A stretch of 63,646 bases of DNA, counting the filler, from Chiloscyllium plagiosum (lineage: Eukaryota), in the NCBI RefSeq assembly GCF_004010195.1. It is 9 parts of 9 records of this genome, joined end to end, with 100 filler letters (N's around TTAATTAATTAA, not from the genome) between each part and the next. Parts side by side here need not be neighbours in the genome. Positions count along the whole stretch, not along the records: positions 51,628 to 60,343 come from NC_057726.1; 8 more parts are not named here. One strand, given 5' to 3'. A program made the position numbers and the translations under genes. The notes beneath the pieces were generated by a model, which was not told the origin of the DNA, did no database searches, and saw nothing but the letters and a program-made list of their open reading frames with translations. Of this stretch, positions 28,977-63,646 are shown piece by piece. Numbering within the stretch: position 1 is the first letter of the stretch; every line of letters begins with the position of its first letter.

Positions 28977-29321
28977 CATTTACAATGAGCTGGCTGCCTC
29001 TCCCAACAATCCAGCCTCACACTTTACAGTAATAGACCCAAACGTCACTGGGCTGGATGTTTACGATGGTCAGAATGAAGCTGTTACGAGAGTTGTCTCT
29101 GGAACGCTGGAATCGCTCTGAGAATCCTGGGCTCCATTGTGTGATGTTCTTCACGTTATACATTAAAATCCACTCCGTGTCATTTCCTGGTCTGCCCCAG
29201 TGCCAGTGAACATCAGTGTGTGTCACTGCAGCATTCCTCAGGGTATACTGTAACCGGGCAGTGTGACCATCGGTGACACATTCCAGAAGTGGAGACTGGA
29301 GAAGGACTGGAGGATTTGCAC
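28977..29321 (-). pseudogene. Single-exon VJ-type V-domain pseudo-exon, no RSS (copy 2)
   Basis: ANPPVLLQSPLLECVTDGHTARLQYTLRNAAVTHTDVHW...EWILMYNVKNITQWSPGFSERFQRSRDNSRNSFILTIVNIQPSDVWVYYCKV*GWIVGRGSQLIVN G|gtgagt. The B-strand Cys is Tyr, there is an in-frame TGA, and no AG at the expected acceptor. Confidence 0.85.
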
Positions 29322-29699
29322 ATTTAGGGGATGAATACCAAGAATTTCAGAATCAACTCTCCAGGTTACAATGTGCTGCCAGTTGTTCAAACAGGCAGTT
29401 CAGGGGGAACAAGTACAGCATTAAATCGGGAACTGGTTTAAGATTGAACCAATGGAGTTGGTGCAAAGTAATTAAATAATTGACACATTTTCATGTTAAA
29501 TAACTATTAGTTCTCATTACTATGAGTATTAATGCTAGAATATACTTTGAAGAGAAATAGCAGGGTCAGAGTGTAGAGTGACGTTTCCTGAATAAAGACA
29601 GCTCCTGATTATAGCTCCTAGCCTCAGGCTCTCCCCACTCCCTGTCCCCACCAGACGTTCTATGCTCCTCACGTGTCCCATTCCCTTCTCCCTGATTCC

Positions 29700-35186: not shown

Positions 35187-36972
35187 CTCTGCATTACATC
35201 TGATCTGCTATTGGCTGCTCACTCCCCGACAATGGGACAAGTAGTAGAGAAAGCCCCAGGAACAACCTGAGCCAGGATGGGGTCTGAAGCCAGACTCGCA
35301 GCAACAATCAACACGAAGCTCCAGCTAATTGTGTTGGGAACTCCCAGAATATTTTGATCACACTTCCCTAGTCAGGTGCCATGGATCGATGGAGTGTGAT
35401 GTAGAATAATAACAACATCTCAGCTGCAATCCCAATCTCAGCTGTGGGAGCTCAAGAAGAGCAAACCCCTCCCTTAGCCCCATGCTCGATGTGGAGTGGT
35501 TCCCTTTAACCTGGATCAAACCAATTGTCTCTGGAATGGAGAGAGATGTGTGTACCCCATTGTGCTCTCTGGTTCATTCCCAATCACTAGGAGATTCCCC
35601 TGCAGATGTAGCACCTCCCTGACTCTGCTCACCCAGCCCGATCGCACTGACACTCTTGTAATTTGAATGGAATTAATATCACTCATTTTCCAGTATAAAG
35701 CTTCACATTTCCGACAAAATCCTCCTCCCATTGTCACAAAAGTAAATGCCCTTCCTCTCCCACCATCAACATTGAACCTGAGGTCAGCTTCCTCCCCGCA
35801 GTGAATCCATCCCCAAGATCACACTCCATCACCACCTCAATCTTCTTGATCACAAACTGATCTCCAGTTCATTCACTGGGCACGAAGTTATTATTGAGTC
35901 ATAGAGATGTGCAGCATGGAAACAAACCCTTTGGTCCAACCCGTCCATGCCGACCAGATATCTCAACCCAATCTAGTCCCACCTGCCAGCACCCGGCCCA
36001 TATCCCTCCAAACCCTTACTATTCATATACCCATCCAAATGCCTCTTAAATGTTGCAATTGTACCAGCCTCCACCACTTCCTCTGACAGCTCATTCCATA
36101 CCCGTACCACCCTCTGCAAGAAAATGTTGCCCCGTAGGTNNNNNNNNNNNNNNNNNNNNNNNNNNNNNNNNNNNNNNNNNNNNTTAATTAATTAANNNNN
36201 NNNNNNNNNNNNNNNNNNNNNNNNNNNNNNNNNNNNNNNTAAAAAAGCACAGACAAAGTTATCAATAGGCTTTAAAATTGAGAGAGAGGACTAGAGCAAA
36301 GAAATACTGACTCAGGAACTAAACTAGCATTTTACTGAGTACTGCATTAGCAATGCTAGGTTTCTGAGAATGATTGCTTCTGATATTTCTGTCAACATTA
36401 ATAATGGGTTATGTGTACGCACATTGCTACTCAACTAAAAAGCAATGACAAAGCTTCAATTAATTAATTCACCATGAAATGCTTTGGGGCATTAAAAACA
36501 AAATTAAAATTAGAAAACATATCAATGAAGTTTCTTTCTTTCGATTTAACTCAGTGCAGCTAATATTGAACATTTTAAACAAAACCAACAGAACTAAATT
36601 TAACTGTTCCCAACATTGCACTTTATAAGCCTTGAAAAAAATTAGACCACATACTCAAATATGTGTCACCACCAAATACATTAACAATATATTGCAATGC
36701 TAAAAAGCTAAAAAAAGTTTGTAAAATCAAAGTACTTATGAACAAAAACATTATGATGTACAAAACTATGAACTAACACCCAATGTCAGAAACAGCACAA
36801 ACTCAGACAGGCAGCACCAAGAGTGATTGCTCTGCTTCTGCTGCTAGACTCTGGAGAAACAACCAACATTTTCACTCAGATTAAGAAATAGGCATGAGGA
36901 AATAATCAAGTTTCAATCAAGTGCCTAAATTCACACAGTTAGTATCCACAGAGGGAATTCTCAGCCACTTAC

Positions 36973-37353: not shown

Positions 37354-37381
37354 AGTTTTTGTGTTACCTTCTGTCACTGTG
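37354..37381 (-). promoter_or_regulatory. V-RSS12 of sigma V1
   Basis: CACAGTG, 12 nt, ACAAAAACT. Confidence 0.95.
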
Positions 37382-37708
37382 AGACAAAAGCACTGGCCGA
37401 GCTAACCCACTTTCCACAGTAATACACGGCGGCATCATTCACCTCCACGTTTTTGATGATTAACTGGTAAATGTTGTGGCCGCTGTTGGCTGTCGATGTG
37501 AAACGGTCGCTGCTAAACCCAGACCCATAGGTAGGCGCACTGTGCGAGTGATAGTAATAGAGGATCCACTGAGGAGCTGATCCTGGTGTCTGCTTGTACC
37601 AGTACACGTTATAGTTATCAACCGTTCCAATGTTACAGTCCAGTGTGGCCTTGTTTCCCGGTTTCACAGTCAGGTGTGAAGGCTGAGTCAGAGTCTGACA
37701 CTGTCCAT
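37382..37708 (-). CDS. Sigma-type light-chain V exon 1, open
   Basis: QTLTQPSHLTVKPGNKATLDCNIGTVDNYNVYWYKQTPGSAPQWILYYYHSHSAPTYGSGFSSDRFTST...YYCGKWVSSASAFV; the long CDR2 with YGSGFSS is typical of the sigma isotype. Confidence 0.88.
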
Positions 37709-37806
37709 CTGTAAAAGAGCAAGGATTAAACATCAGAAATGGACCCTTGTAAAGGGGACTGTAAAACCCCGACCTGCTGCTGTGGGAGGAGCAGTGTTTT
37801 ACTTAC

Positions 37807-43492: not shown

Positions 43493-43864
43493 CACAGTGT
43501 GATGTTCTAGGGTTCAGTCCACACAGTTATCCAGGATCCTGGAAATGGAGAGAAAACACCTTCAGATACTCCATTGCCAGCATTGATCATGTATTCCCAG
43601 TGCCCCAGTTGGTGTGGGACAGTAAGGAATAACCTCACAACAACATCCACACACTGACATTAAAATGTCCTCAACACTCAGTAATGGGCAATGATTCAGA
43701 AAGTTACCAATTATGAAATAATGGCAATTGGAAAATATTATACCCAAGAACATCATTAAAGTAATTTATGAAGTCTTAAATATTAGAGTATTTGATCCAG
43801 TACAATGATATTAGGAGGCCATTATTTCCTCATATCAGTTTTTGTGTTACCTTCTGTCACTGTG

Positions 43865-44191
43865 AGACAAAAGCACTGGCCGAGCTAAACCACTTTCCAC
43901 AGTAATACACGGCGGCATCATTCACCTCCACGTTTTTGATGATTAACTGGTAAATGTTGTGGCCGCTGTTGACTGTCGATGTGAAACGGTCGCTGCTAAA
44001 TCCAGACCCATAGGTAGGCGCACTGACCGAGTGATGGTAATAGAGGATCCACTGAGGAGCTGATCCTGGTGTCTGCTTGTACCAGTACACATAATAGCTA
44101 TCAGCCGTTCCAATGTTACAGTCCAGTGTGGCCGTGTTTCCCGGTTTCACAGTCAGGTGTGGAGGCTGAGTCAGAGTCTGACACTGTCCAT
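43865..44191 (-). CDS. Sigma-type light-chain V exon 2, open
   Basis: Paralog of V1; RSS12 at 43837-43864. Confidence 0.88.
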
Positions 44192-44289
44192 CTGTAAAAG
44201 AGCAAGGATTAAACATCAGAAATGGACCCTTGTAAAGGGGACTGTAAAACCCCGACCTGCTGCTGTGGGAGGAGCAGTGTTTTACTTAC

Positions 44290-44338: not shown

Positions 44339-47300
44339 TTCTGTCAGTGAGCTGCCTGCCTTCAGCGACTGTATCTGGGACAGACTGTGGCAGCAGGTTC
44401 CCATTGAAGCCAGTTATAGAGCCCTTCACAACAGGAAGGAAATCCGTGCAAATGAGAGCGATTCACACTGACCAACCAGAGCAAGGACCTGAAACCCACC
44501 CATTCAGGCTCAGAGATTCAGGTTGATGCAGTGATACCTCAGTCCGACTGGAAACACTGTCACATTTTACACTGAAGCTCGTTTATTGTCTGATATTTCC
44601 CTTTATGTTTACTGCATCTTCCGACCAGCCCTGGAGTTAAAATTGTTCTTCACACCTACTATCAAAAAATGACTTTCTAGTGTAATTTATTTGATGCTCT
44701 TGTTAATAGATGAGATTCCCAACAGTGTGGAAACAGGCCCTTTGACCCAACGAGTCCACACCAACCCTCCAAAGTGTAACCCACACAGATCCATTTCCCT
44801 CTGACTACTCCACCTAACACTACAGGTGATTTAGCATGGCCAATTCACCAACCCTACACATCTTTATGGGCAGCACCACAACACCATAAGACATAGGAGT
44901 GGAAGTAAGGCCATTCGGCCCATCGTGTCCTCTCCACCATTCAATCATGGGTGATGGGCATTTCAACTCCACTTACCCGCATTCTCCCTGTAGTCCTTAA
45001 TTCCTTGTGACATCAAGAATTTATCAATCTCTGCCTTGAAGACATTTAGCGTCCCGGCCTCCACTGCACTCTGCGGCAATGAATTCCACAGGCCCACCAC
45101 TCTNNNNNNNNNNNNNNNNNNNNNNNNNNNNNNNNNNNNNNNNNNNNTTAATTAATTAANNNNNNNNNNNNNNNNNNNNNNNNNNNNNNNNNNNNNNNNN
45201 NNNTGGAGCTTCATGTTGTACCTGTCCAAAACATTGTAATGAACTGCCAGAGGAAGTGGTAAATGCAAAGATAGGTCCAACATTTAGAAGACATTTGAAC
45301 AGCTCCAGGAACTGGATAGGTCTGGATGAATATGGGCCAAAGGCAGGCAAGTGGAATTAGTTTAATTTGGGAACTCTGGTCAGCATGGATGAGCTGGACC
45401 AAAGGAACTGTTTCTGTGCTGTACGACTTTATGACTCACTGACTTTATGGTGGGGTAGGCTCAAAATTGGAAGGTGGTGAGCAAGTGAAGGGCTAGATTG
45501 GGCATGTGGGAGAGTTTGGGCTGATAGGCTGTGAGGTGTTGGCTGGCTGCTGGGTAAGCTTGCATGCACTCTGTCTGGCAAGGTGGCATCAAGGTAAATG
45601 GTAATGGTCACAGGATAATTTGGTCGAATTGTGCTTGGTAGGTGAGGGGTAGTTTGAGCTGAAATGCAGGAGGTCTGTCTTTGCTAGGCTGGTTGGTGTA
45701 GAGGTGGGCAGAGTGCCAGGATGTTTTGGGGGTGGAAGGTCACTGTAATGAAGTGACAGGGGGACGTATTGTCAAAATGTAAAGCTCGGAGTCTGGCAAA
45801 ATGGTAGGTGATAAAGGACAGATGCGAAAGGAGCTGGGATGCAATGTGCACAGGTTGACTTGGTTAAGATGAGAGGTCACTGATCATGGGCTGAGGTCAT
45901 GTCTTGGGTAGTGGGCTTTTGTCAGAGGTTGTGAAAATGATGGTGCCAAGTCCAGTCAGGGCCAGATTCACCATGGGCCAGGTGCAGAGTGGCAGGAGTG
46001 TAAATGAGTGAAAGGAATTGGGATCATATGTCCATCTGGAATATAGAATATAGAACATTACAGTGCAGTACAGGCCCTTCAGCCCTCGATGTTGCGCTGA
46101 CCTGTGGAACCAATCTGAAGCCTATCTATCCTACACGATTCCATTTTCATCCATATGTTTATCCAATAACCTTTTAAATGCCCTTAAAGTTGGCGAGTGT
46201 ACTATTGTTGCAGGCAGTGCGTTCCATGGCCCTACTACTCTCTGAGTAAAGAAACAACCTCTGACATCTGTCATCTATGTCCTCTCCTGCTAGCCATCAC
46301 TATTCAAGGAAAAAGACTTTCACTGTCCACCCTCTGTTTATCTTTTATGTCTCAATTCAGTAACCTCTCAACCTTCTTCCCTCAAATAAAAACAACTTCA
46401 AGACCCTCATCCTTTCCTCATTAAACCTTCCCGCCATACCAAACAACATCCTGGTAAACCTCCTCTGAACTCTTCCAAAGCTTCCACATTCTTTCTATAA
46501 TGTGGTGACCAGAACAGTACACAATACTCCCAAGTGCGGCCACACCAGAGTTTTGTACAGCCGCAGCCTAATCTCGTGGTTCTGAAACTCACTCATTCTA
46601 TCGATGAAAGCCAACACAAAGTATGCCTTCTTAATAACTCGATCAAACTGGCTGGCAACTTTTAGGGATCTATGTACATGGACACCGAGATCTCTCTGCT
46701 CAGCTACACTACCAATATGGATTGCCTTGGATGTGTTTCGTGTGATAGGGGTTGTGTGTTCCGGGCATGAATGGATGTATAGCAGGGGAGGGTTTGTCAA
46801 TGTGAGTGGAAATTTAGGTCTAGACAGATAAAGTTACAGATTACTTGTTCATTTCTCAAATCATATTTACGTAAATACTCAGCTGTAACACTCCAAAGTC
46901 TCTGAACCTTAATGGTCCTCCATTTTTCAGAGGCCTCCAGAATTCAGATAATTGTAAATGAGATGTTTCAACTTCCAGCCAATTGGCATGAGTTCAGCCG
47001 TAACAGCTATCCTCCCCGTCCCAGTGCTCAGCTCCTGCCTGTGCTGCTGCTGCAGTGACCTCCCTCCCAGAGAGAACATTCTGCCTTGCATTGATAAGTG
47101 AGGAAGGCTCACTGGGCCTGATTTCCAAGTATGGGGACGGCAAACACGGGGGGACACAACTTTAAAGTGAGGGGAGATAGGTATAAGACAGATGTCAGAG
47201 GTAGTTTCTTTACTCATTAAGTAATAAGGGTATGGGATGCTTTGCCTGCAACGGTAGTAGATTCGCCAAGTTTAAGTACATTTAAGTTGTCATTGGACAA

Positions 47301-48107
47301 ACATATGGACATACATGGGATAGTGTAGGTGGGATGGGCTTCAGATTAGTATGACAGGGCAGCGCAACATCGAGGGCCGAAGGGCCTGTACTCCGCTGTA
47401 ATGTTCTATGTTCTATGATTCACTCTGATTTCTCTCCGGGGGTACTGCCAGCTGTTGGGTATTTCCAGCAGCACGGCACCTCGTGGGGCAGCACGCTGGT
47501 TCCATGGTTAGTGCTGCTGCCTCACAGTGCTAGGGATTCGGGTTCCATTCCAGCCTTGGGTGACTGTCTGTGTGGAGTTGGCACTTTCTCCCCATGTCTG
47601 TGTGCGTTTCGTCCCACAGTCCAAAGATGTGCAAGTTTGGGGAATTGCAAATGTTGTGTTCAGTGGTTGGGAGTTTAGATGCATTAGTCAGGGTTAACTG
47701 TAGCATAATAGGGTAGGGGAATGGTCTGGATGCGTTACTTTTCAGAGGGTGGGTGTGGGCTTGGTGGGCCAAATGGCCTGTTTGCACACACTGTAGAATT
47801 TCGATGAATCTGCATTTCCTTGGTTTGTTTTTTGTGAAACATCTCTGCTCTTCACAGCAATCCAGTGAAAGTGTCAGTTCGTGAGATCTTCAAACAGTTG
47901 CTGGGGTAGGATCAGGATGTTCTTCTTCCTAAATTATGTGGTAATAGAAACAGGGCATGTTTCTAAAGAGGGAACCAATGACCATGGTCAGCAATTGGTA
48001 GGAAACAAAAATAAACCCGTTATGCTGTCGACGTTTACAGCTGAGGATACATTTGATAAGGTCAAATTAACAGAAACTAACATGCTCAATTGGTAATTCT
48101 ATTGTAG

Positions 48108-48370
48108 AGACACCGTCTCCCCCCACGCTTTATGGCCTGGTCTCCTCCTGTCAGGAGCACAACACCGGTTCTGTGATCTTTGGTTGTTTAGCGATGGACT
48201 ATTCCCCTGACGTCACCAAGGTAACCTGGAATAAAGGTGGGGAGCTAATCACAACTGGATTGAAGACTTACCCATCAGTGAGAAACAAGAAGGGAACCTA
48301 CACCCTGAGCAGCCAGTTAACCCTGCCCGGGTCAGAGGTAGATTGCCCCAGCAAAATCTCCTGTGAGGTT
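48108..48370 (+). CDS. IGHM: IgM heavy chain Cmu1 exon (truncated at scaffold end)
   Basis: attgtag| then [70 protein letters not shown]...ISCEV; includes the light-chain-bonding Cys (SSC). Confidence 0.9.
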
Positions 48371-50859
48371 NNNNNNNNNNNNNNNNNNNNNNNNNNNNNN
48401 NNNNNNNNNNNNNNTTAATTAATTAANNNNNNNNNNNNNNNNNNNNNNNNNNNNNNNNNNNNNNNNNNNNTCTCAGTGTGAGCTGCAGTATATATGCTCT
48501 CCTACATTTTTCCTGTTTCTGATTTATATCACTCCATTCTGTTGTGCTGTTGTTCAGGATCTGGGTTAAGGTCATTCATTTCTCAATCGAAAGCTTCCTT
48601 CTTTCAGCCTGAGAGACACTTTACATTTGCAAACAGGAAATATGACTTCAATGCTGGACTCTGTTCTCAGGATTGATGGGCTCGATGATTTGATTCAGTG
48701 AAATAACCTTGTCTAATCTCTTCGGGGTCGACATTTCAGGTGTAACGCTTCTTCAGGAAGCGTGGATAGGTGTGAGGGGAGTTGCAGATAAAGGGGTGGC
48801 TTGGAGCAAGTTGGTGAGGTGGGGATAGTTGAAAAAGACAGAGAGTGTGACCTGATTGGTCGATGGGAGAGATGAATCCGGAATCATCCATCCCCTCGAC
48901 CAACCAGGTCCTATCTTCTACCTGTCTCCACTTATTCCCACCTAATCACCCTGGCCCCGCCATTCCCTTTATCTGTAGCTCCCCCAACACCCACCCACCC
49001 CACTTCCTGAAGAAAGGTTATACCCAAATTCTCTTCCTCCTGATGCTGCCTGGGCTTGCTGTGTTCTCCCAGCCTCCTGTTTGTCATCCTTGTATTCCAG
49101 CATTTGCCGTTTTTTATTTGTCTCTAATCTCTTCAGGGGCCTGGATAAGTGTGAGGAGATTGGGTTTTGGTGGAACTACCCACAGACTCAAGTCGAAAGA
49201 AGCAAAGCAAGAAAGGCACGTGGATCAAATACAAGGGGGCAAATTGAGAGCAAAAAGTAATTGTTACCAGTTTAGCAATTTCAAAGGAGAGAGCAACAAC
49301 ATTGAATTGCTTCTGATGTCATCCTCTGTGCCCTAACATTTCACAGAGCCAGCTCCACATCCTTCCATTGGCTTTGTCATTCAGAGTCAACTGTTCCCTT
49401 CCCATAGCCCTTTTTAAAATGTCCTGTCCCAGACAGGCAGAGAATACTTCACCTTTTCTGGGAAAGATAGAGAAATATATGATGTCAGGGTCTGACAGAA
49501 GGATGTGTACCATCTGTGGATTCTGGAGACAGATCACTGAGATATTCCTCACTCCCATCAACACCTGACTTTATTCTAACAACAGTTTCTATTTTTCATT
49601 ATAAAGTATCAGCTTCAGACTGGACATTTCACACCCAGCCCCCATGTCCTCACATTGGAATCAAGAATCAAACTTGCCCCATCTCAGGATTGCCCTCTGA
49701 ATGTGGTGTCCGTGTGGTAATGCTGTGTTTGAATGAAAGAGCCACAGCGGAATTTGTGACTAAGTCCAACGGGTTTCTGAGCCACCAGCAGNNNNNNNNN
49801 NNNNNNNNNNNNNNNNNNNNNNNNNNNNNNNNNNNNNNNNNNNNNNNNNNNNNNNNNNNNNNNNNNNNNNNNNNNNNNNNNNNNNNNNNNNNNNNNNNNN
49901 NNNNNNNNNNNNNNNNNNNNNNNNNNNNNNNNNNNNNNNNNNNNNNNNNNNNNNNNNNNNNNNNNNNNNNNNNNNNNNNNNNNNNNNNNNNNNNNNNNNN
50001 NNNNNNNNNNNNNNNNNNNNNNNNNNNNNNNNNNNNNNNNNNNNNNNNNNNNNNNNNNNNNNNNNNNNNNNNNNNNNNNNNNNNNNNNNNNNNNNNNNNN
50101 NNNNNNNNNNNNNNNNNNNNNNNNNNNNNNNNNNNNNNNNNNNNNNGAACTCCTTCTGGATGCAGTTGTAGAATTGCCCTCCTGCTCCAGGGACCTCATT
50201 ACCCCCTTGATTCCCCCCTCTTGTTCCAGGCCTTGAAGGTGGAGGTTAACACTTCACACGCCTTTCCCTGAGGCTTCAGCTCTGGCCATTCCCAAAGCAC
50301 ACACGAGACAGAGACTGAATCGTCTTCATCTTTATTCCTTTTTCCAGATTGACATTGACAGAAAACAGACTGCAATTAACAGCCCAGACAGAGGAAGGTG
50401 CACAAATTCACAGCCAGAATGGAGCTTGAGGAAAACATTTGTGGAGATTTTCTCAATAACATAAGAATCCTGTCCCTTTAAACAGTGACAGAAGCTTAAA
50501 TTGGAACTGGTGGCTGAGCAGGAAGGAGATCTGGTTTACTGAAGCAGAGACTTCTGAGGTTCACATTGTTTTGTACAGCTGACAGTTTTCAGCATCTTCG
50601 AGAGGTGTTACTTGGTATCACTAGTCTTCACGCTTCAATCAAACACTCCTAGAACAGGGGGCATCGGGTTTGATACAGAGTAAAGCTTGTTTTTGATTAT
50701 CCCAAAGACCTGCCTTAACCCTTGAACCTCAGCTGTGTCTCTGAGCCAATCCCAAGAAGGATGAGAGTTGAAATTCATTGCTGACAATGACCTTTGCCCT
50801 GCCAGCTCAGCCCTGTTCTATTTAAAGTTGTGTCTCCTCTGTGGACTGTCTCCAACACT

Positions 50860-51188
50860 CTACACACATTCTGATCTCCTGATGCTCTTGCTGAGGGGAG
50901 AGGGGAGGGTCACGTGGGTGAGGGCACAGGAGAAGCGAGAGTTGGACTCCCAGTCAGACCCAGAGAGGGTCAGCAGGCTGCTAACACTGTAGGTGCTGTC
51001 CGAAGCTCGCAGGTGATTGCTGGTCTGAACCCCGTCCGAAATGACTGCACCATCCTTCTTCCACTGCACCTCCAGCTCATCGGGATAGAAGTGATTGGCA
51101 AGGCACACCAGGGTGGCAGTGCCCTTGGCATTGACCTGCTCTGGGGAGGGGGGCAGCAGGGTCAGCTTGGGCTGAGAGTTTTCACGGC
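50860..51188 (-). CDS. Ig kappa (NS4-type) constant exon
   Basis: ttccag| then (S)RENSQPKLTLLPPSPEQVNAKGTATLVCLANHFYPDELEVQW...FSCALTHVTLPSPLSKSIRRSECV*; candidate AATAAA (-) at 50331-50336. Confidence 0.93.
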
Positions 51189-52838
51189 CTGGAAGACAAG
51201 AGAAACAATTTTAATCCCTGCCATTTGAAGGGAATTCAACTCTGAACATTCACTGGCAAAACAATCCATTTGAACATTTGTAGCCAATACCTAACAAACC
51301 CCATAAAAGGACAGGTCCTTTTAAAATTGCTTCTTGGGATGTGAGTGTCACTGGCAGGGCGAGCATTTATTGCCCATCCCTAATTGCCCCTGAGAAGGTG
51401 ATGGTGAAAAAGAAGGGACAGTTTTGGACCATCATTTATGGAATGAATGTGGGCAGCTGGAAGGGCTATCAATGGGGGAGTATTTGAGTGACAATGATCA
51501 GAACTCAGTGAGATTGAGAGTAGGGATNNNNNNNNNNNNNNNNNNNNNNNNNNNNNNNNNNNNNNNNNNNNTTAATTAATTAANNNNNNNNNNNNNNNNN
51601 NNNNNNNNNNNNNNNNNNNNNNNNNNNGAGGAGCAGGTGAGGCGACGCTGCAGAAATAAGTCCTTCATCAGGAATGTGGAGATGGTAGGGGGCTGAGATA
51701 AATAGGGGGTGTGGGCTGGGCTGGGGGCAAGTTAGGTGGGATGGTGACAGGTGAATGCAGGTGAGAGGTAGTAGTAATAGGTCAGTAGGAGGGTGCAACA
51801 GAGACGTGGGAAGGAAGATAGGCATATAGGACACATCAAGAGTTTGGGGCCAAATTGGAGGGTTGGATCTGTAATGAGGTGGTGGGAGGAGAGATTTGGA
51901 AGCTGGTGAAATAAATGTTGATGCCATGTCTTTATAAGATTTAGAGGCAGAAGATGAGGTATTCTTCCTCCACTTGATTGGTGGCTTTGTTTTGGTGGTG
52001 GAAACCCAGGTTTTACATGTGCTTAGCGGACTGTGAAGGGGAGTTGAATTGTGTGGTCACAGGGTGGTAGGGTTGTTTGGTGGGTACGGACCAGAAATGT
52101 TCCCTGAACTGCTCCATGAGTTGGCATTCTGTTTCCTCAATGGAGAGAAGGCTGCATCGAGAGCAATGGTGAATGTGCAGGAAAATCTCCAACGAATGTG
52201 AAATGATCCTTTAGGTCCTTGGATAGAGGTGAGGGGGATGGCGTCGATGCAGGTTTTGCACTTCGTGCGGTGGCACAGGTTTGGCTGTTGCTGTTTTGAA
52301 AACGACAGGCATGAAACGCGAATGATGCAAAAATAACAGTTTTTGGACATGTTGCGCACTTGTGGATTCAGTGGAGTTCCTCCTGCCTACCTATCCAATG
52401 GCCGTGAAGGTCGAGTAGGAGATCATGTTTAGCGAATGGTTGTTTTTCGCTGAGCAGGAACAAGTTCCCTAACGGAGCATAAATTTTAGTTGTGAAACAA
52501 ACTGCATGCAAACTAAATGTTGATATAGAAGCGCACTAACAAGTGCACGTTTCAAAATTAGAAAACTTGTCCTGAACTTAGTTTTCAACTTGCGACAAGT
52601 TGGAAATGGTTTTGGAAACTTTGCTCTGGGCGTGGAAAGCTCCCGATGTGAGATTTGTTTTGCAATGGACTGGTCAGCAATTCTTCGATGTTACATTTCC
52701 CAGTAGATACAGATATTTCAAATAGTTGGTTCTTAGCCTGACTGCAATGAACGTCAATAATGATTGCAGCACGTTTTATGATATAAAACCAAATACTCCA
52801 TAGTGCACCCAGTAGTATCATCCATCTTCCCAATATGT

Positions 52839-52979
52839 TTAAATTCTTGCTTTCTTTGCCACCTTTATGCCTGCATATAATGTAGAATGGTCTTGCAGTT
52901 TGGGTGTTGATGCTTTCTTGGAATCAGCTATTTGCAGGGTGGCGTATGTCAGATTGTTACCTTCGCTTCCTTTCTTGGT
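52839..52979 (-). CDS. Inhibitory IgSF receptor, terminal cytoplasmic exon with ITIM (LTYATL) and ITSM-like motif (TLYAGI)
   Basis: tttcacag| phase 0: TKKGSEGNNLTYATLQIADSKKASTPKLQDHSTLYAGIKVAKKARI*. Confidence 0.82.
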   Translation of the reverse strand, partial: TKKGSEGNNLTYATLQIADSKKASTPKLQDHSTLYAGIKVAKKARI

Positions 52980-53338
52980 CTGTGAAAGTAAAATTTAATA
53001 TCACGCATTATCCCATCATTGACTCTTTGCTAAACGCGGTCAATTTTTTTTAATAAAAAGACTTCAGGGGAATTTCCTTTCATCATTTGCCAACTTCAGA
53101 TTGTAACAGAGTTTATCATTACTTTTTAACTGATTTCTCTCCACTCTGTAGCTCTGCAGTAAAAGTTCTTGTTATTCTGATTTAAACTTCTCATAAAATA
53201 AGGTAGAATATCAACATTGCCCATTAAAGAACCACGTTATTGCTTCAATTAAAATAGCAAACGAATGAAATGCCGGTGTATTAAATGTGTTTGGAATGCT
53301 GATATTGCAAAACATCACTTTCAACAACCAATTTCTGA

Positions 53339-53716
53339 GCCGTGACAGCCAATGTGATGTGCTTACCGATTGGGGAGACCTCAAGTTGCAATTTACTACC
53401 AGCTTTACCCCACTGTTGCTGATTTACCGAACTCTGGGACCCGGACGAATATGGTGAGCCTTGACCGAGATGGTCGGGCCTAGTACAGTATGGGTTAAGA
53501 TTAGATTAGATTAGATTACTTACAGTGTGGAAACAGGCCCTTCGGCCCAACAAGTCCGCCGTGACAGCCATTGTGATGTGCTTACCGATTGGGGAGACCT
53601 CAAGTTGCAATTTACTACCAGCTTTACCCCATTGTTGCTGATTTACCGAACTCTGGGACCCTGCGAATATGGTGAGCCTTGACCGAGATGGTCGGGCCCA
53701 GTACAGTATGGGTTAA
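53339..53716. repeat. ~160-bp direct repeats flanking a 59-bp SINE/LINE 3' tail
   Basis: Copies at 53339-53498 and 53558-53716; insert (gatta)n cttacagtgtggaaacaggcccttcggcccaacaagtcc. Confidence 0.9.
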
Positions 53717-53795
53717 ACCTCGGACCTTTCGATTCCTACAGTTTAGATTAGGACCAAACGTCATTGAACGTATTTAAAAAATGGTAAAGCTTCAC

Positions 53796-53903
53796 TTGAT
53801 TATAGACGGTAATCTTCTTTGTTTGTCTGGGATTCTTATTTGTCTTGGTGCTGGATTCGACAGGGTGGGCATAAGGAAGTTTGCTCTGAGTTCCGTATTT
53901 TGT
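53796..53903 (-). CDS. Inhibitory receptor cytoplasmic exon 3
   Basis: ttttacag| TKYGTQSKLPYAHPVESSTKTNKNPRQTKKITVYNQ |gtgaag; 108 nt, phase 0-0, weak donor. Confidence 0.6.
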
Positions 53904-54539
53904 CTGTAAAATCGGTATTTGCCACTCTTATCAGTTCAGGTGCTATCATTATTACTGCTAGTTCATAAAAGGAAACAAGGATAATTTTCATTGCATTCTC
54001 ACGCAAAACTCACAGTAAGACCTAGCTGTCCGTTTGATATCTCCCCTGATTTCTATTTCCGACACAATCGGCAAAAGAGACATCGACATCGGTTTAATTT
54101 TGTCTTTTTTGTCATAGCATAACATGCAAACAAGGAATAAGAGCAAGGAACTAGGCCCTTCAATCCTGCTCCATCATTCAACAATGTCATGGCCGACTCT
54201 GCCAATGCTACATTCAGATTCCCCTCGATAATCTTTCATCCGCTCTATCATCGACAATTTATGTACCCCGCCCTAACACGTTTAATGTTTCCGCATTTAG
54301 TGCCATTTGAAGAAGGGATTTTCAAAGACTTACAACCCTACGACAGAAACGAAAAATCCTCACCTCTGTCTTAAATAGACAATCATTTACTTTTAAACTT
54401 GGACTTCTACTTTTAGATTCTCCCACAAAAGGAAAGATCCTTTCGGCATCCACCTTGCCAAATTTGTCAGGATTTTATATATTTCAATTAAGTCACCCCT
54501 AACTCTTCTAAACTCCAGAGGTATAGGCCTACCCAATGG

Positions 54540-56300
54540 TTTTTAGCTTTTGAAAAGGAAGAGAGAAATTAAAATTAACATGGGTCCCGAAAAGAAGGAG
54601 GTGGGGAAACAATCATGGGGAACAAGGAAATGGTAGAATACGCTAGCAGAACTCTAAATCATTAAGTATCCAAGGGCAAAAGGAGAAGTGGAATTAAAGA
54701 AAATAACCCACTGGAGAGGATGCTTCAGGGAAACTAATGGGACATAAGACTAATATGTCCCTTGGACCTGATGCAGTACATTACACAATATCAAGGGAAG
54801 AAGATACAGTCGTGGATGCAGCAATAGTAATCTCCCAGAAATCCTTAGATTCTGAAAGAAAAACTCCCAGAGGAGTAAAACTTTTCCAAACCAACATCTT
54901 TATATAGACAAGAAATAGTTATAAATAAGCTAGTTAGCGAACGCTTGAGTCAATTATAAAAGATGCAGAGTATTTCAAAATACATAATATCATCAGTGTC
55001 AGCTTGCCTTCATGAAGGGGTAAACATGCCTGACAAATTGACTGCTTTTTATTGAGGGAAGAAGGAGGGCAGATGAAGCCGAAGCAGGAGATGCAATAAT
55101 TTTGGATTTTCAGGAAACATTTGCGAAAGTAGCACAAACTAGGTTACTTTATCAGATTAAAAACCCATGGTGTTGCGGGAAGTACATTAACATAGATAGA
55201 GGATTGGCGAAGTAATAGAAGACTGAGAGTTGGGATACGGTGGTAGGGCATTTTCAGAATGGAAACCTGGAACTTCTGGTGAGACACAGGGATTAGTGCT
55301 GGGGTCACAAAGTTTCCAATTATATATATTTATATATATATTACATTTGGATGTAGCAAGTGCATGTACAATGGCCGAGTTTATGGTTAACATTAAAGTA
55401 GGCTGGATGATGAGAATTACACAAAAATCTTTAGAGGGATTTAGTCCGATTACGTGAATGGGCAAAGATTTGGCAGATTGGATATAATGTGGGAAAATGT
55501 GAGATTTATACACATTGGCAGAATGAATGGAGGGGCCAAATATTCTTTAAGTGCAGAAAGCCTGCAGAAATTTACGGAGCAGAGGAATTTTGGAGTCCCA
55601 ATTCGTGAATCACAAAAAGCTAGCACCCATTTAAAACAGGCAATAGAGAAGGCAAATGGAATGCTGGCCTTTATTTCAGTGAGAATGGAATATAAAAAGC
55701 AGGGATATTTGTCAAAACTATACGAGGCACAAGCTAGGCCATAGCTGAAATACTGTGAAGAGTTTTCTTACCATTATCTCAGAAAAAGGTGTATTGGCAT
55801 TGCAGGCAGTCCAGAGAAAGTTCACTGGGCTGGTATCAGATAAGAAGGAAGTCTCTTATGAAGACAGGTTAAGATGGCTTGGCCTGTACTCATTGGAATT
55901 TAGAAGAATGAGACCTGACTGAAACACACAATATTCTTAGGACAATTAACGAGGTAGATGTGGAGAGTTTGTTTCCCCATGTGAGAGTCTAAGACCAGAG
56001 GATATATTCTCAGAATAAGTGATTGCACCTTTAAAATAGAAGAAGGAATTTCTTCTCTCAGAGGTTAGGGAATCTATGAAAGTATTTATGATAGAAAGTT
56101 TGGATTATTAAGGTTGGGTTATTAAAAACATTCAAACTATTCATTTACTGACTAAAACTATATTTTAGGCTTGAATATAGATTTTTAGTCTGTAAAGAAA
56201 TAAAATGTGAAAGGGAAGAGGCAGGGTTATGGAATAGAGGTTTGTCAGAGCAATTTTCAATTCCTTCGATGTTGGAGCAGACTGGATGGTCCAAATGGCT
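54540..56300 (+). mobile_element. Degenerate CR1 LINE in a receptor intron
   Basis: RT 3' peptides (KANGMLAFIS) and a CR1 3' end. Confidence 0.7.
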
Positions 56301-56953
56301 TAGCTCTCTTTTGTTATTTCATTCATAATTAGTGGACATCACTGGCTAGGCCAGCATTCATTCTCCACCCGTAACTGCGCCGGAGGAAAGTTGAGAGTCA
56401 ACCACATTGCTGGGACTCTGGATTGACAAGTAAGGCAAATCAGGTCAAGATGGCAGATTTCCTTCCCTGAAGACCGTGTCTTATGGTCATAAGATCACAT
56501 AAGGGAATCTGCTCATTTCCGGTATTAGTCTAGTAAACCTTGCCTGAACTACTTTCAATGTCCTTCCATCAAAAGGTTGACCAGTATTGTACGCAGTGAT
56601 GTAGAATTGCTCTTATCAATCCCTTGCATTAATGAAATAGGGAGCCCCCTTCCCTTACTCTACAGTGTCTTTTTTTAAACGACTCCATTATCGCAATGAC
56701 TAAGAGAAAGTGAGGACTGTAGATGCTGGAGGTCAGAGTCGAGAAGTGTGGCGGTGAAAAAGTACAGCAGGTCAACCAGCATTGGAGGCTCAGGAGTGAA
56801 GATGTTTGCCGAAACGAAGACTCTCCTGCTTCTGGGATGCTGCGTGACTGGCTGTGCTTTTCCAGCACTAAACTTTTCGACTCCACTATCATAATATTGA
56901 TGCTGTATGGGAGTGACGTGGATATTTTATTCTTGACAATTCTGGCAGCATAC

Positions 56954-57064
56954 CTGGGAATAGACAGTATTTTCTTCCGCGCGTCTGTGTTTGGAGAATC
57001 CTTTGTTGGCTTTCAATTTTACTGCAGCAGAGGCGGCATTTTCTTCAGATGGTGCTTTTCTAAG
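56954..57064 (-). CDS. Inhibitory receptor cytoplasmic exon 2
   Basis: ttttctag| LRKAPSEENAASAAVKLKANKGFSKHRRAEENTVYSQ |gtatg; 111 nt, phase 0-0. Confidence 0.75.
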
Positions 57065-58162
57065 CTAGAAAATAAGATATGAAGTATCGAGAAAAGCGCA
57101 TTTGATTTTACAGCCAGCCATCGCCAATTGGAACTGAACAATAGAATATTAACGTGCACACAGTAGTTAATCAAACAAGCTAGAAATTGCATTCTGTCAA
57201 CTCTCAATGATTTGCATCTAATATCTCACCAAAGTGGTGGGGAGTAATGTTCTAAATATGAAACCCAGAGCATTTAAGGCATTTATCTACAATTTAACAT
57301 ACAGCTGACGAAACATAGACATTAATTAATTCCTCGTTTATCTCTAGCTCTCTTCAACCTTGTTGTGGCCTCGGCAGTTTCCTTATTCCGTAATTAACCC
57401 AGTCTATTAGAAGATCAGACAGCGAAGCCTTTGGCTGTTCTCCTAATATTTCTGGAATGTTGCATTCTCTGACTGGCAACCAACAATTAGATTTCTGGCA
57501 AAAATTCTCCCCAAGCACGTCTACAGTCATTATTTCCTCTCCCTCAGAAACTACGAAACAGCCTGCCTCCAGCATTGCTAACCGAGGAATATAATGCAGA
57601 AAGACCTGAGATTTTATGTCCCACACTACTTTAGGAAGATGTCGTGGTTTCGAGAGGATATAACAGAGATTTACTATAAGGGTCCTAGCGTTCAGGGATT
57701 TCAATGATGTTTAGAAGCCTGGACATGATGTTTTACTTAGATCAGTTACGTTTAAGGGGAGATTTAACTTAAATGTCTAACATGTTGATAAATTGTGATG
57801 GAATAAATTAAGATAAACAATTTTCATTGGCAGGATGTTTGAGATTTAGGCGACAAGATTCGTTTTCATTGGCAAATAATCTGGGGAGTATGACAGAGTG
57901 ACAGGAAGAATTCGATAGGAACTTTCAAAAAGGGAACTGGATTGACCTGAAAAATGTAATAAACAGGAAAATAGCACGAGACCGGAACAAATTGACTTAC
58001 TGCCTCATAGAGGCAGTAGAGGTGCTAGCTCTTCATCCCGGGCAATGTAAGTCTCTGTTCTGTGAAGTCAAAGTAATTTTGACTGAATGCAAAACTCATT
58101 GCTATCCTTTCCATGCACCCACCTCCTATTTGTTTGGAATATAATGAATATTGTCTCCTTAC

Positions 58163-58206
58163 CGGTTGGACATTTTGATTTGCTTCCACCGAATTTCTTC
58201 CTCTGC
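58163..58206 (-). CDS. Inhibitory receptor cytoplasmic exon 1
   Basis: ctcttag| (G)RGRNSVEANQNVQP |gtaagg; phase 1-0 bridges the TM exon to the phase-0 exons. Confidence 0.75.
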
Positions 58207-58807
58207 CTAAGAGAAAGCAAAGTAATATAACGTGAGTGACAGAATCACTCATTCAATGTCATGTCTTCGCTGCTAGAAACGTTTAATTTCTATATAAAGT
58301 TCAGAAATCTAGTTTGACAATGTTCAGCAGCACCAAGTTCATTATGATGTGTTTTACCTGCTCACTGCTCTCATCGCGCTTTACCCAATGATGCAGAGTC
58401 AGTGACAGTGCAAGTGCAAGTCGGCGTCTTATTTAATCTACAAAATTAGAATGGAAATAAAATCTGCGGATGTGCATATCTGGTTGTGAGTTCGAAAATG
58501 CCCACTTAACCTTAATGCCAAATGCCAAAATCCATTCGAAACATTCGAAAAATGTTTCCTTCTCAGGAACTGGACCTCCACTGAACGATAATAGAGAACA
58601 CTCAAAATTTCGATTGCAGCACCATGGAGGTAAATAAACCGAGTGTATAGTTCGAATAAGAAAGTGAAATATTTCCTTTTCAAATCCGGTTAGATCCTCA
58701 TATCCTCAATTTAATGCCAGGCCTTTGATTTCTCACCTGCTCTCTATGCTTTTTACACTGGGTCTGAGGAAATAAAAAGTATACAGTGAAATAAGAAAGA
58801 TTCTTAC

Positions 58808-58912
58808 CAGCTGATGCTTTCAATTTGAGTATCAAGAAAATGCTTATGATTAGTACCATCGCCAATGCCCCTCCTGCACCTCCAATAATCATCGGACGAT
58901 TGAAATCTTCAC
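58808..58912 (-). CDS. Inhibitory receptor transmembrane exon
   Basis: tgtag| GEDFNRPMIIGGAGGALAMVLIISIFLILKLKASA G|gtaag; uncharged TM followed by a basic stop-transfer. Confidence 0.85.
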
Positions 58913-59625
58913 CTACAGAATCAACACGTGATGGAAGTGAACATGTGTGGAACACAGGAGTGACATACACAGAGCATAATGCACAGGATGATAAGTTGCA
59001 AAGGTGTTTCTCAGGATAACCCAACTGTTAACCAAATTGTACCGTTTTAATTTTGTTGGGAAAATCTGTACAAGGTCCTTAATTCGCATCAGACCCAATG
59101 AATTGCAGCTCAGCTATGTATTTAATGGAGAAAACACATATAATGACTTAATGGTGTGAGAAACTTTATCTGCATAGGAACACTGTTTGCTATGAGTAAA
59201 GGAAGTTGTACTTGCTCATTCATAGAATCCTAGAAGAATCATAGAATCCCTATAGTGTGGAAACAGGTCATTTGGCTCAACAAGCCCACACCGATCCTCC
59301 GAAAAGTATTGCAGCCAGACCCTATTGCTCTCCATTTCCCCTGAATGATGCACGAAACCTACACATCCCTTAACGCTATGGGCAATTTAGTTTGGCCAAT
59401 TCACCCAACTTGCCCATCTTTGGACTGGGGGAAGAAACTGAAGCACCCGGCGGAAACCTGCACAGACTCGGGGAGAATGTGCAAACTCCACAGTCGCCGG
59501 AGGCTGGAAGTGAAGCCAGTTTTTTGGTGAATCAACAGTGCGAACCACTGAGCCACCATGCTGCCATTTAGGATCTTCCCCACACCACATACCCCAGTCC
59601 CTATTAGATATATTTTCAATCTTAC

Positions 59626-59922
59626 CACGATCAAAGGTGTAGCTGACGCTGGTGGGCACCTTAAGACAAGCATGAGATACCAGACAGGTATAAACTACAC
59701 CATTCTGCACAGGCTGTGCATCTTCCAATGAACTAGTAACCTCATAAAGCCCATCCATGGTCTTGTTTTTCACAGTCTCCATTCCGGTATGAATTTTGAA
59801 ACCATCTCTTAACCAAGAGATTCCTAAATCCTCTGGGTAAAATGCAGTCGTTTTGCATTCGAATTTCAAATAGTTCTCTGAAATCTCTTCTACGGGAACG
59901 ATTTTCTGGAGTTTCGGAGGAA
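59626..59922 (-). CDS. Inhibitory receptor membrane-proximal C1-set exon (SIRP/B7-H6-like)
   Basis: tatag| PPKLQKIVPVEEISENYLKFECKTTAFYPEDLGISWLRDG...DGLYEVTSSL...YTCLVSHACL...FDR G|gtaag; 297 nt, phase 1-1. Confidence 0.88.
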
Positions 59923-61442
59923 CTATAACAGAAAATCAAACCTTTTAAAATATTAATTTTCATTCTCTTTTTTTCACCCTTCACACTCGACCCGGTTCGG
60001 CACCCCATGTAATACTGTTCCATTACTAATGTGACAACAGTTTTCCTTGTTATTCTGTTTGAAACTTGGTATTTGTACTTATTTTTAAAAATGCTCAGCA
60101 AAATGTTTGGATCATTTGCAAACGATGCACAACGAGCATAAACATGGGGAGAAAAACTTTAATGAAATGCAGCTATCATAATCGTCGGGGTTTAGCTTTA
60201 TGTCAGTGAATTCGGTTTGATGAACTTTTTTTGGAAGACATTCTACCTGGAGGTAACACACGAATTAGGAGCTGAAGTAGGACAGTCAATGGGTATCTCT
60301 CCATCCTGGAGGCTCCCTGCCTCCATTCCTGATGAAGGGCTTTNNNNNNNNNNNNNNNNNNNNNNNNNNNNNNNNNNNNNNNNNNNNTTAATTAATTAAN
60401 NNNNNNNNNNNNNNNNNNNNNNNNNNNNNNNNNNNNNNNNNNNCTGTTTTCCTTGGAGCATTGAAGGTTGAGAGGGGCCTGATAGAGAGGTATAAGATAA
60501 TTGTTGGCAGTGATATGTTGCATAGGAAGGCACTTTATACACGAGTAAAGGCTCAATAACCAGGGACAGAGATTGAAGGTAACACAGACATGGACACATA
60601 GAAACTTGGAGCTGGAGAAGGCCATTCGGCCCTTTGAGTCTTGTGTGTCATTCAGTATGATCATGGCTGACCCTCTCTCTCAATGCTATGTTCCTGCTTT
60701 CTCCCCATTTCCTTCATGCTGTTAAAATGCAAAACAACTATCTCTCTATTTTTCTAGAACATATTCAGTTCCTTATCCTCCACAGCCGTTTGTGGTGGAG
60801 AATTCATCAGTTTGACCATCCTCTGAGTGAAGAAATGTTTCCTCATCTCAGTCCTCGTATCTCCCTGAGACTGCATCCCCTGGTTCCAGACTCCCCAACC
60901 AGGGGAAACCTCCTCCCTGCCCCGGCCTGTTAGAATTTTATATGTTTCAATCAGATTCCCTCTCATCCTTCTAAACTCGAGTGGGTCCAGGCCCAGTCGA
61001 GTTGCAGAGTGAGAGGAGAATTGAGGAGAAATGTTTTCACCCAGAGGGTGGTGGGAGTCTGGAACTCACTGCCTGAAAGGCTGGTTGAGTCACAAACTCT
61101 CGTGACAGTGGAGCAGTGTTTAGATATTCCCTTGTGTTGCTGTACGCTCCAGAGTAATGGGCCAAGAGCTGGAGGATGGGATTAGTGTCATCAGATCGCT
61201 GTTTAACAGCACAGATACAATGGGCCAAATGGCCTCATTCGGTGCTATTCACATCAATCACTCTCTGAGACAAAGAGAGAGGGAGAAGAGGAAGTGTGAG
61301 GGGCTGATGTGGCTCTCTCTGCCTGATGCCATTTACATACTGAGGAACACCCAGTCAGACTCACAGGCTGCAGCTTTATAAAGCAGAGCCCAGTGAAGGG
61401 AGAGTTTATCAGGAACCAGGCACAGGGACAGGAGCACACACC

Positions 61443-62441
61443 ATGATTTCACACATCCAGCTGATCTGGCCCCTGGCATTCTGTGTCGCAGGTACAAATC
61501 TCTCTCCTTCCACCTTGAATCTTTAGCTGCTCTCCATTTCACTCCAATTCCACCGACTTGTGATTGAAGAGAAAATGGTGAAACCAGAGGAATGCTCAGT
61601 GTCTCCAACAATCTCTCATTTCGCGGTCTCTTTCTGTGACATTTCTGACTTCACTATGTTTCTCTCTGACCCCTCAGGTATCAGTGGGGACATCATCATG
61701 ACTCAGTCTCCCCCAGTGCTGTCAGTGGGACTGGGCCAGACTGTAACCATCACCTGTACGGCCAGTCAATCTGTTAGCAAGTGGGTTAACTGGTTCCAGC
61801 AGGGAGAAGGTCAGAAACCCTCTCTCCTGATCTATGAAGCAACAACTCGAAACACAGGAGTCTCCGAGTGATTCACTGGCAGAGGATATGGGACCAGTTT
61901 CACCCTGACAATCAGCAACGTTCAGAATGAGGATGTTGCTGACTATTACTGTATGCAGCATAACAGCTACCCTCGACACAGTGACACAGAGCCGTACAAA
62001 ATCACCTCCTGTACTGACACATCCACAGTTATATAAAATGCATAATAATGGACACACAGTCCCACCACCTGTACTGACATATCCCACAGTTAGATACAAA
62101 TGAAAGTGAACAAATTACCCCAAGCTGGGATGGTCACTGTCTGCTACACACTCCAGTCCCTGTGGTGTCTCAACGCTCACTGAAGGCCTCAAGTTTCCCT
62201 CTTCCACTCCATGACCACATGTGAAGAACAGCTGCAAGATTTAACAACGAAAAATAAAGTTCACAACCCAGAGGCAGAGACAGAAAGACACAAAAAGAGG
62301 GTGAGAGTGATCGACAGACTGGGAGATAGGGAGAGGGTGGGAGTGACAGAGGGAAGCAGAGAGCTGAGGTTTTTGTACAGCCTCTGCACTGGGAACTCTC
62401 ACTGTGGCTTACGTTTCGTAAAGGAACCAAGCTCAGACTGA
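61443..62441 (+). pseudogene. Kappa (NS4-type) L-V-J pseudogene cluster
   Basis: Leader 61443-61491; V 61678-61976 with in-frame TGA at 61869-61871; RSS12 61977-62004 with altered nonamer ACAAAATCA; RSS23 62368-62406; J 62407-62441 reads FRKG instead of FGKG. Confidence 0.92.
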
Positions 62442-63646
62442 GTAAGTAAACCTCAATCCTCCGTTAATAACCCTTTTAATACTGAAACTTTCTAAAACAC
62501 AAATGCTGAAATGCTGCAGGTGTTAGTGGGGAGCTGCAGTGAATGAAATGGTTGATTGTGGAGCCCTGTGTCTAACAGGGTGTCCAGCTGTATTTCTGTA
62601 GTCCTATTGCCCCGCTTAAGCAGCAAGATATAAGTCAGTAAGTTTTCCTCACTGTGTGGAGGAGCTCTGTCCATTTGCAGCCTGTGGTCCCATTCCTGCA
62701 GCATGGAGTGAAATCAGTGAGTAGCCTCCTGCCAGCCTCAGTGTGACAGACACGGGCAGAGTTTGATGTGAGCTCTGGCTCCCTGTCCCAGTCTCTGATC
62801 TGATCTCACTGACCTCAGCAGCAGCAGCAGCAGCAGCAGCAGCACAGTGAGACACCGAGCTCCCACATCCCCCAGATTTAACTTTGCTCAATCACACAAT
62901 CACAGAATTGTTACAGTGCACACGGAGGCCGTTCCGCCCATCCTGTCTGTACTGGCTCTCCGAATGAGCAATTCACTGAGTGTCATTCTCCTGCCTTCTC
63001 CCTGTCACCCTGCACATTGTTCCTNNNNNNNNNNNNNNNNNNNNNNNNNNNNNNNNNNNNNNNNNTCTCACTTTTGCTTCTTTTACCAATTATTTTCAAT
63101 CCATGGCCTCTCCCTCTCAGTTCTTTCTCAGGTGGGAACATTTTCTCCTGGTTTAATCTGTTCAGACCCCTCCTGATTTCTTGATCAAATCTCCTCTCTG
63201 CCTTCTCTTCTCTGAGGAAGACAGTCCCAACTTCTTCAGTCTATCTTCATAACTAACATTCCTCATCCTCGATGGGTCAGATAGCCCACTCCTGCTCCTA
63301 TTTCTAATGTTCTTATTATCTTATCTTCCTTTGTGAGAGACACACATCAGATTTCCACTTAACACTTTGTGGCTGTACCTTCCCAGTCTTATTCCCAACA
63401 CTCCGTGCAGTCCCATCCTTACACAGTGACCCTGATTTAGAACTTATTACTCGCTCTCCCTCACTCTGAAACTGGGTCAAAAGTTCTATTCCTTATTCTG
63501 GTGCTATCTATCTCTCCCAGGATTCTGTGCACCTCTGTGTTCCTCTCTGGTATTACCTCCTGGATCCCACAGCCACCCAAGATAGTTTAAACCCTCTCCA
63601 ATAGCACGACTACATCACCCCAAAGGAACTCAGTCCCAGGTCTGTT

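Follow-up and report, generated by a model that had tools for sequence, protein, structure and literature searches.

The window analysed in this study is a stretch of 63,646 nt, filler included, from the bamboo shark Chiloscyllium plagiosum (RefSeq assembly GCF_004010195.1), and its minus strand carries, between positions 59922 and 52839, six candidate exons (E1 to E6), best explained as the 3′ portion of a gene that is spliced and encodes a single-pass receptor. The predicted product has a C1-set immunoglobulin (Ig) domain, an uncharged transmembrane (TM) segment and a tail with an inhibitory motif of the immunoreceptor tyrosine-based kind (ITIM) followed in tandem by a motif of the immunoreceptor tyrosine-based switch type (ITSM). 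It would be an inhibitory member of a chondrichthyan family of paired receptors and would probably start with an unrearranged V(J) domain, a reading drawn from the sequence to which we assign a probability of about 0.8. The exons, their splicing in a close relative, the motifs and the family membership are shown, whereas the leader and V(J) exons would be expected upstream of an assembly linker and, judging from the relatives, sister genes with an arginine (Arg) in the TM segment and a short tail would be expected on the same chromosome.

Exon structure of the receptor gene

The window is split into nine pieces by eight identical 100-base linkers, each composed of 44 N, a 12-base stop spacer and 44 N. 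The receptor gene is located in the piece 51628-60343, where the 5′ edge of E1 lies 421 bases from the linker at 60344; because the piece ends at this linker, the leader and V exons of the gene are lost, and no V exon of the receptor family was found anywhere in the 63,646-nt stretch. A first-pass annotation of this DNA had placed the V domain or domains beyond a scaffold end, a statement to be corrected, since what stops the piece is an assembly linker. The features of the gene are given below, together with the contigs of run X1, which bears a different organism label (a close relative), whose RNA status is a guess and whose exons are 97-98% alike to those of the window.

59922-59626, minus strand: E1, C1-set Ig domain exon; phase 1-1; Pfam match; spliced to E2 in X1 contig 5
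58912-58808, minus strand: E2, uncharged TM exon; phase 1-1; horn shark and catshark have homologous TM exons; X1 contig 5 contains it in spliced form
58206-58163, minus strand: E3, 44-nt cytoplasmic exon; phase 1-0; present in the RefSeq model; 44-nt gap in X1 contig 5
57064-56954, minus strand: E4, tail repeat 1, ending in TVYSQ; phase 0-0; in X1 contigs 4 and 5
53903-53796, minus strand: E5, tail repeat 2, a weak, skipped or decaying cassette ending in TVYNQ; phase 0-0; homology to a catshark exon
52979-52839, minus strand: E6 coding part, tail repeat 3, with LTYATL, TLYAGI and the stop; phase 0-stop; joined to E4 in X1 contig 4
52277..52838, minus strand: probable 3′ untranslated region, end not fixed; X1 contigs 1-3, depth 3-5, one only 93% alike
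60344..60443, no strand: linker at which the leader and V exons are lost; two runs of 44 N around a 12-base stop spacer
4926-5025, 17599-17698, 23517-23616, 36140-36239, 45104-45203, 48371-48470, 51528-51627 and 60344-60443: the linkers, identical 100 bases

When recomputed, the six minus-strand exons were found to share one reading frame, to have AG/GT ends throughout and to contain no internal stop, so that the canonical sites and compatible phases described by the first-pass annotation hold, as do its C1-set domain (E1 scores above the Pfam cut-off), its uncharged, Gly-rich TM segment (the hydrophobic stretch of E2) and its tail ending in LTYATL and TLYAGI, read in E6. Splice sites were scored with a consensus matrix against the 436 GT and 499 AG sites of the same piece; the donors of E1 to E4 stood at the 98th-99th percentile of the GT sites, and the weakest sites were those of E5, with a donor at the 92nd percentile and an acceptor at the 67th percentile of the AG sites. 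Additionally, tblastn searches with the catshark and horn-shark relatives recovered E1, E2, E4, E5 and E6 in order, and each tail exon found its best match in its catshark counterpart, a score reached by 0 of 1000 shuffles; the arrangement is thus no product of chance. A further exon candidate at 53153-53070 was rejected, as it matched no tail repeat (296-379 of 1000 shuffles reached its score). No AATAAA or ATTAAA polyadenylation signal was found 3′ of E6 down to position 51628.

The match of E1 to the Pfam C1-set model has an E-value of 3.9e-10 and 40.4 bits (cut-off 21), and in a fold search the C1 domain of a modelled horn-shark relative superposed on the C1 domain of HLA-DP beta with Z 15.6 and a root-mean-square deviation (rmsd) of 1.5 over 97 aligned residues. 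E1 contains one N-glycosylation sequon. A third cysteine is found in the FG loop of the Chiloscyllium C1 domain (E1, and also P0001 and P0068 among the collected proteins), and the preceding V domain ends in LTVC; an inter-domain or inter-chain disulfide through this extra cysteine is possible on sequence grounds.

Splicing and the tail repeats

The exon joints of X1 were read from the record coordinates of the contig pieces. Contig 5 (480 nt, depth 4.1) aligns in register to E1, E2 and E4; its E1-E2 joint falls exactly at the predicted sites, and 44 nt, the length of E3, separate E2 from E4. In contig 4 (250 nt, depth 2.9) the end of E4 is joined to the first base of E6, with E5 skipped. Since these two contigs span them, five exons (E1-E4 and E6) are supported by transcript-like contigs. 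The earlier proposal of six exons in one transcript is not confirmed, because the sole transcript-like contig at the place of E5 joins E4 to E6; likewise, the check for spliced reads at the predicted joints returned the E1-E2 joint, the E4-E6 joint and the E3-sized gap, but no joint of E5. As the first-pass annotation listed no exon coordinates, the interval 53903-53796 is the best candidate for its fifth exon. It is homologous to a catshark exon (0 of 1000 shuffles), but both X1 contig 4 and RefSeq skip it. In run X2, E5 is covered by one contig, with 17 mismatches in 730 bases, no acceptor AG any longer and a stop at codon 4; this run looks like DNA because introns are covered, and the contig may represent an allele or a paralogue. 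E5 is thus a genuine exon with a catshark homologue, either skipped or in decay. Two single-cell runs provided no test: in X6, of which about 2 in 100 reads were read, 2586 reads were placed, coverage being confined to repeat-rich bins and absent from those of E6, E3 and E2, and in X7 no reads were placed on the stretch.

The cytoplasmic tail is 140 aa long with E5 and 104 aa without it. Judged by their sequences, E4, E5 and E6 represent a single phase-0 exon in triplicate. In the catshark protein P0013 the three tail parts match each other above all 500 shuffles, and in the bamboo shark the DNA similarities of E4 with E5 and of E5 with E6 exceed all 300 shuffles, but that of E4 with E6 does not (20 of 300 reach the score); at the protein level the similarity among the three exons is weak, 24-61 of 1000 shuffles reaching the score. 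The first two catshark repeats retain YASL and YATV, and E4 lacks the ITIM tyrosine present in catshark repeat 1. In the bamboo shark the first two ITIMs (E4 and E5) have decayed, leaving the pair in E6. A tandem duplication of about 219 bases (98% alike) was also seen at 53339-53716, in the E5-E6 intron, around the end of a short interspersed repeat.

In E6, LTYATL is followed by TLYAGI, with the two tyrosines 23 residues apart, in agreement with the consensus (S/I/V/L)xYxx(I/V/L) for an ITIM and TxYxx(V/I) for an ITSM (PMC12151841). An uncharged TM segment and a cytoplasmic ITIM with an ITSM-type motif, the sequence features of an ITIM/ITSM inhibitory receptor, are therefore both present. 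The ends of E4 and E5 (TVYxQ) form no ITSM because splicing puts Thr next, whereas reading through into the intron after TVYxQ would supply a Val and create one. In the case of E4, read-through of the donor (56953-56926, minus strand) would give TVYSQV, followed after 9 codons by a stop, and an AATAAA lies at 56931; such a shortened isoform carrying a single ITSM is possible from the sequence, and this read-through form was found in no transcript.

A chondrichthyan family of V(J)-C1 receptors

All 12 matches of E1 among longer proteins were elasmobranch V-C1 proteins, and the identity of its C1 domain to those of the nearest sharks was 62-69%. A search of the full library with a horn-shark relative returned 877 proteins at E 0.001, of which 150 were listed. 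Family membership was defined as at least 70 bits against the family profile and a length of at most 520 aa, with isoforms and fragments counted, and 129 of 187 collected proteins scored as family. The cysteine motif of a V domain was observed in 98 of these 129, and a J-type GxGxxLxV motif in 86. The named subset, for the most part with a V(J)-C1-TM layout, covers 18 chondrichthyan species, including Callorhinchus, and within this subset the family members of a species share one chromosome or scaffold. Moreover, in three short open reading frames (ORFs; P0067, P0113 and P0093) V-J runs straight into apparent intron sequence, which suggests an exon with VJ joined in the germline.

The place of the bamboo-shark gene in this family was examined with a C1 tree of 58 rows, in which the outgroups, on long branches, were the Ig constant domains of the stretch, UrIg-like proteins and amphibian V-C1 proteins, and no SIRP was included. 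E1 fell in an elasmobranch clade of 21 rows (100/99) within a chondrichthyan clade of 41 rows (97/94), apart from the outgroups; the gene thus has a C1 domain nested in the family clade as well as homologous TM and tail exons. The automatically named models XP_067906043.1 and XP_067905821.1 of Heterodontus, XP_038662961.1 of Scyliorhinus and XP_007902825.2 of Callorhinchus share with it the C1 domain, the TM segment, the tail repeats and the terminal ITIM pair; these and other relatives mostly have one C1 domain, and several retain ITIMs in the upstream repeats. In total, 32 collected proteins end in an LTYAxL-type motif followed 14-24 residues on by a second tyrosine motif.

Another form of the receptor occurs in the same family. 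By a strict sequence pattern, 10 proteins (about 7 genes) were found to have an Arg near the outer end of the TM segment and a tail of 9-32 aa, and in the C1 tree the catshark Arg-TM members group with sisters of the same species that have a neutral TM segment or an ITIM (100/97). Because ITIM-tailed and Arg-TM short-tailed members sit together, the family is considered one of paired receptors. An Arg in the TM segment binds adaptors with an immunoreceptor tyrosine-based activation motif (ITAM). We know of few paired inhibitory and activating receptors described in sharks. No description of this family was found in the literature, although subscription papers and supplements may hold one. Multi-V(J) receptors were also observed in turtles and lizards (P0134, P0164 and P0188-P0243); some of these have an ITIM tail, and at least one has a short tail and an Arg-bearing TM segment that resembles the shark Arg-TM type; the identity of the V domains is only 22-29%, and the automatic names are inconsistent.

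The public gene model and the points against an inhibitory V(J)-C1 receptor

The first-pass annotation had presented the gene as hidden, which does not hold, as E1, E3, E4 and E6 are already part of XP_043563363.1, an automatic C. plagiosum model named ‘tyrosine-protein phosphatase non-receptor type substrate 1-like’ (SIRPalpha-like). The gene therefore already has a public model, an imperfect one. E1 is identical over 98/98 aa to the second C1 domain of this model, E4 and E6 are identical in it and E6 forms its end, so that both descriptions refer to the same gene; they differ in that the model omits the TM exon E2 and E5 and adds a V and another C1 domain upstream, while the TM exon is supported by X1 contig 5. 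The J motif is degenerate in the V domain of the model.

Several observations weigh against the receptor proposed here. The V exon lies outside the stretch, so the ectodomain of this gene is deduced from its relatives. XP_043563363.1 has the layout V-C1-C1, with C1 copies identical at 94 of 99 positions, and this doubling may reflect a real recent duplication or two merged genes. The TM exon is skipped in the RefSeq models of four species (P0001, P0010, P0013 and P0023), and TM-less forms may for that reason be real. The splicing evidence comes from two low-depth contigs (2.9 and 4.1) of the single run X1, with its other organism label and its guessed RNA status. Finally, the catshark Arg-TM members P0002 and P0004 have an ITIM-like VxYVxL directly behind the membrane, so that the label ‘activating’ is not clean.

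Relationship to known receptors

According to PMC12975943, a SIRP consists of one V and two C1 domains, and it is conceivable, though unlikely, that the whole family is a shark SIRP by descent and the gene a SIRPalpha-type receptor reading CD47. With mammalian SIRPalpha, SIRPbeta and SIRPgamma (2wng, 4i2x; PMC12975943) the family has in common a V and C1 ectodomain, an ITIM tail and charged-TM relatives; among SIRPs, too, forms with an ITIM are paired with forms that have a charged TM segment (PMC12975943), and SIRP VJ domains are joined (PMC11599192), and the Arg-TM, short-tailed members that such pairing calls for are present among the relatives. SIRPalpha (2wng) was the top PDB match other than titin of one relative (E 9.4e-11) and the fourth of the family profile (E 1.6e-32), and the V-C1-C1 layout appears in the bamboo-shark RefSeq model and in a skate model. 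However, antibody chains and UrIg2 score equally or higher, and the fold search yields a tie: SIRPgamma reaches Z 13.9 at rmsd 5.2 over 172 aligned residues, within 1 Z of Fab chains, of UrIg2 and of B7-H6, for which Z is 14.5 and rmsd 3.8 over 166 aligned residues. The best 50 matches listed by Foldseek were antibody chains only. Furthermore, in contrast to the V-C1-C1 of SIRPs, the nearest full-length shark relatives have one V(J) and one C1 domain; most relatives have a single C1, and the doubled ones of bamboo shark and skate are near-identical recent copies. A profile of the V domain alone matched no SIRP among 53 PDB sequences at E 1e-8, a result still compatible with a SIRP. The RefSeq names across the family are SIRPalpha-, NCR3LG1-, tapasin-related-, Ig lambda- and MHC II-like, and because one family bears so many different names, they carry little weight. 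The architecture called SIRP-like in the first-pass annotation is thus borne out as a resemblance, in line with the name assigned automatically in RefSeq, but V(J)-C1 is the layout of the closest full-length relatives and no comparison singles out SIRP.

PRARP/VJC1, which Fu and Ohta reportedly described in 2019, is said to comprise non-rearranging VJ-C1 membrane receptors with inhibitory motifs, encoded by few genes in bony vertebrates. That the family represents the cartilaginous-fish branch of these VJ-C1-ITIM relatives of antigen receptors is about as doubtful as the SIRP relationship. The reported layout of PRARP equals that of the family, the relatives showing joined VJ, C1, TM segment and inhibitory motif, and both PMC11599192 and PMC10751288 mention PRARP among the genes with a joined VJ; the best single-domain PDB matches of the V profile were TCR alpha, CD79b and VNAR. 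Against this, no label of a bony-vertebrate V-C1-ITIM receptor occurred among the named matches, a subset of the 150 listed.

Much less probable is a decaying locus, or one that chiefly yields a TM-less product. In its favour, only one of the three ITIM repeats is not degenerate, one DNA contig has a broken E5 and the RefSeq model skips the TM exon. On the other side, the reading frame stays open in E1-E4 and E6, where donors are strong, X1 contig 5 includes the spliced TM exon and the terminal ITIM pair matches that of the family. A ligand of the B7-H6/NCR3LG1 type, rather than a receptor, is least probable: the V-C1 layout is the same, among two-domain structures the fold search placed B7-H6 first (though within 1 Z of others), several RefSeq names in the family are NCR3LG1-like and B7/butyrophilin clusters lie near by predicted structure, but 86 of the 98 V-bearing members have the J-type motif, which to our knowledge B7 V domains lack, the conserved ITIM pair and the Arg-TM sisters fit a receptor, and an amphibian protein of repeated V-C1 units, B7-H6-like by eye, falls outside the clade.

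Identity with two further systems was ruled out. UrIg is secreted and has a non-rearranging VJ and three C1 domains (PMC12227049); UrIg2 (PDB 9dmx), in which a shark VJ is likewise followed by C1, was the second PDB match of the family profile, but the gene has a spliced TM exon and a long signalling tail. In PD-1 an ITIM and an ITSM stand in tandem about 23-25 residues apart, as they do here (PMC12151841), whereas it has one V and no C1 domain (PMC11599192) and the gene has a membrane-proximal C1-set domain.

Other immunoglobulin features of the window

A Pfam scan of the stretch gave Ig-domain matches for 12 of 12 scanned ORFs, with at least one ORF in each piece, and an Rfam scan gave 0 matches. 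Since the window is made of separate pieces joined by linkers, the neighbouring Ig genes are uninformative on synteny or linkage. Kappa-type V-J miniclusters with recombination signal sequences (RSS) of 12 and 23 were found at 61650-62450 (plus strand) and 11560-12430 (minus strand). The one at 61.6-62.4 kb is a pseudogene, given the stop in V and the replacement of FGxG by FRKG in J, and its kappa V at 61.6-62.0 kb was rejected as the V exon of the receptor gene, being on the other strand (plus), in the next piece, and with an RSS and an internal stop. A C1-set exon at 806-1186 (plus; Pfam E 2.2e-13) groups on a long branch with neither the Ig constant domains nor the receptor family, and a V-set ORF at 29017-29346 (minus) without the first canonical cysteine is a light-chain-like V or a pseudogene. 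The features at 18188-21555 (minus), 37374-37802 and 43857-44285 (minus), 48071-48370 (plus) and 50860-51210 (minus) are heavy-chain constant exons (IgW-like and IgM CH1-like by eye), two V genes of lambda-like type that carry RSS-12, and one constant exon of a light chain.

Proposed mechanism and biological meaning

The claim of a shark inhibitory C1-TM-ITIM/ITSM receptor is supported by sequence, spliced contigs and homologues, and the recruitment of SHP phosphatases that was proposed with it is still a matter of inference. In such a receptor, binding of a ligand by the V domain would cluster the receptor, Src-family kinases would phosphorylate the two tyrosines of E6 and the phosphotyrosines would bind SHP-2, SHP-2L or SHP-1 through their tandem SH2 domains, much as in SIRPalpha or PD-1. 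This engagement would damp the signals of activating receptors, including those of the Arg-TM sisters, which would pair with an ITAM adaptor. Whether the repeat exons E4 and E5, both of phase 0, are retained or skipped would set the length of the tail and, in other species, the number of ITIMs. The residues of SHP-2 and SHP-2L involved in binding are described as conserved across jawed vertebrates, including shark (PMC12151841).

It is tempting, though tentative, to go further and consider these genes as a cluster of paired receptors with a non-rearranging VJ-C1 ectodomain, a family not described before, conserved from chimaeras to rays and separate from SIRP, B7-H6, PRARP and UrIg. It might then constitute the main inhibitory and activating system of natural killer or myeloid cells in these fishes, and could be a membrane-bound signalling relic of the light-chain-shaped gene split by RAG, with inhibition tuned through the gain, skipping or loss of ITIM exons of phase 0. 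Paired receptors are usually driven by pathogens that mimic a self ligand. Intact single-exon VJ genes are sought as kin of the antigen-receptor precursor (PMC12227049). For the single gene, the analysis restores the membrane segment missing from the RefSeq model and so corrects it. More broadly, a pan-chondrichthyan VJ-C1 cluster with both receptor types would offer a direct test of whether SIRP-style checkpoints date from the first jawed vertebrates or arose twice.

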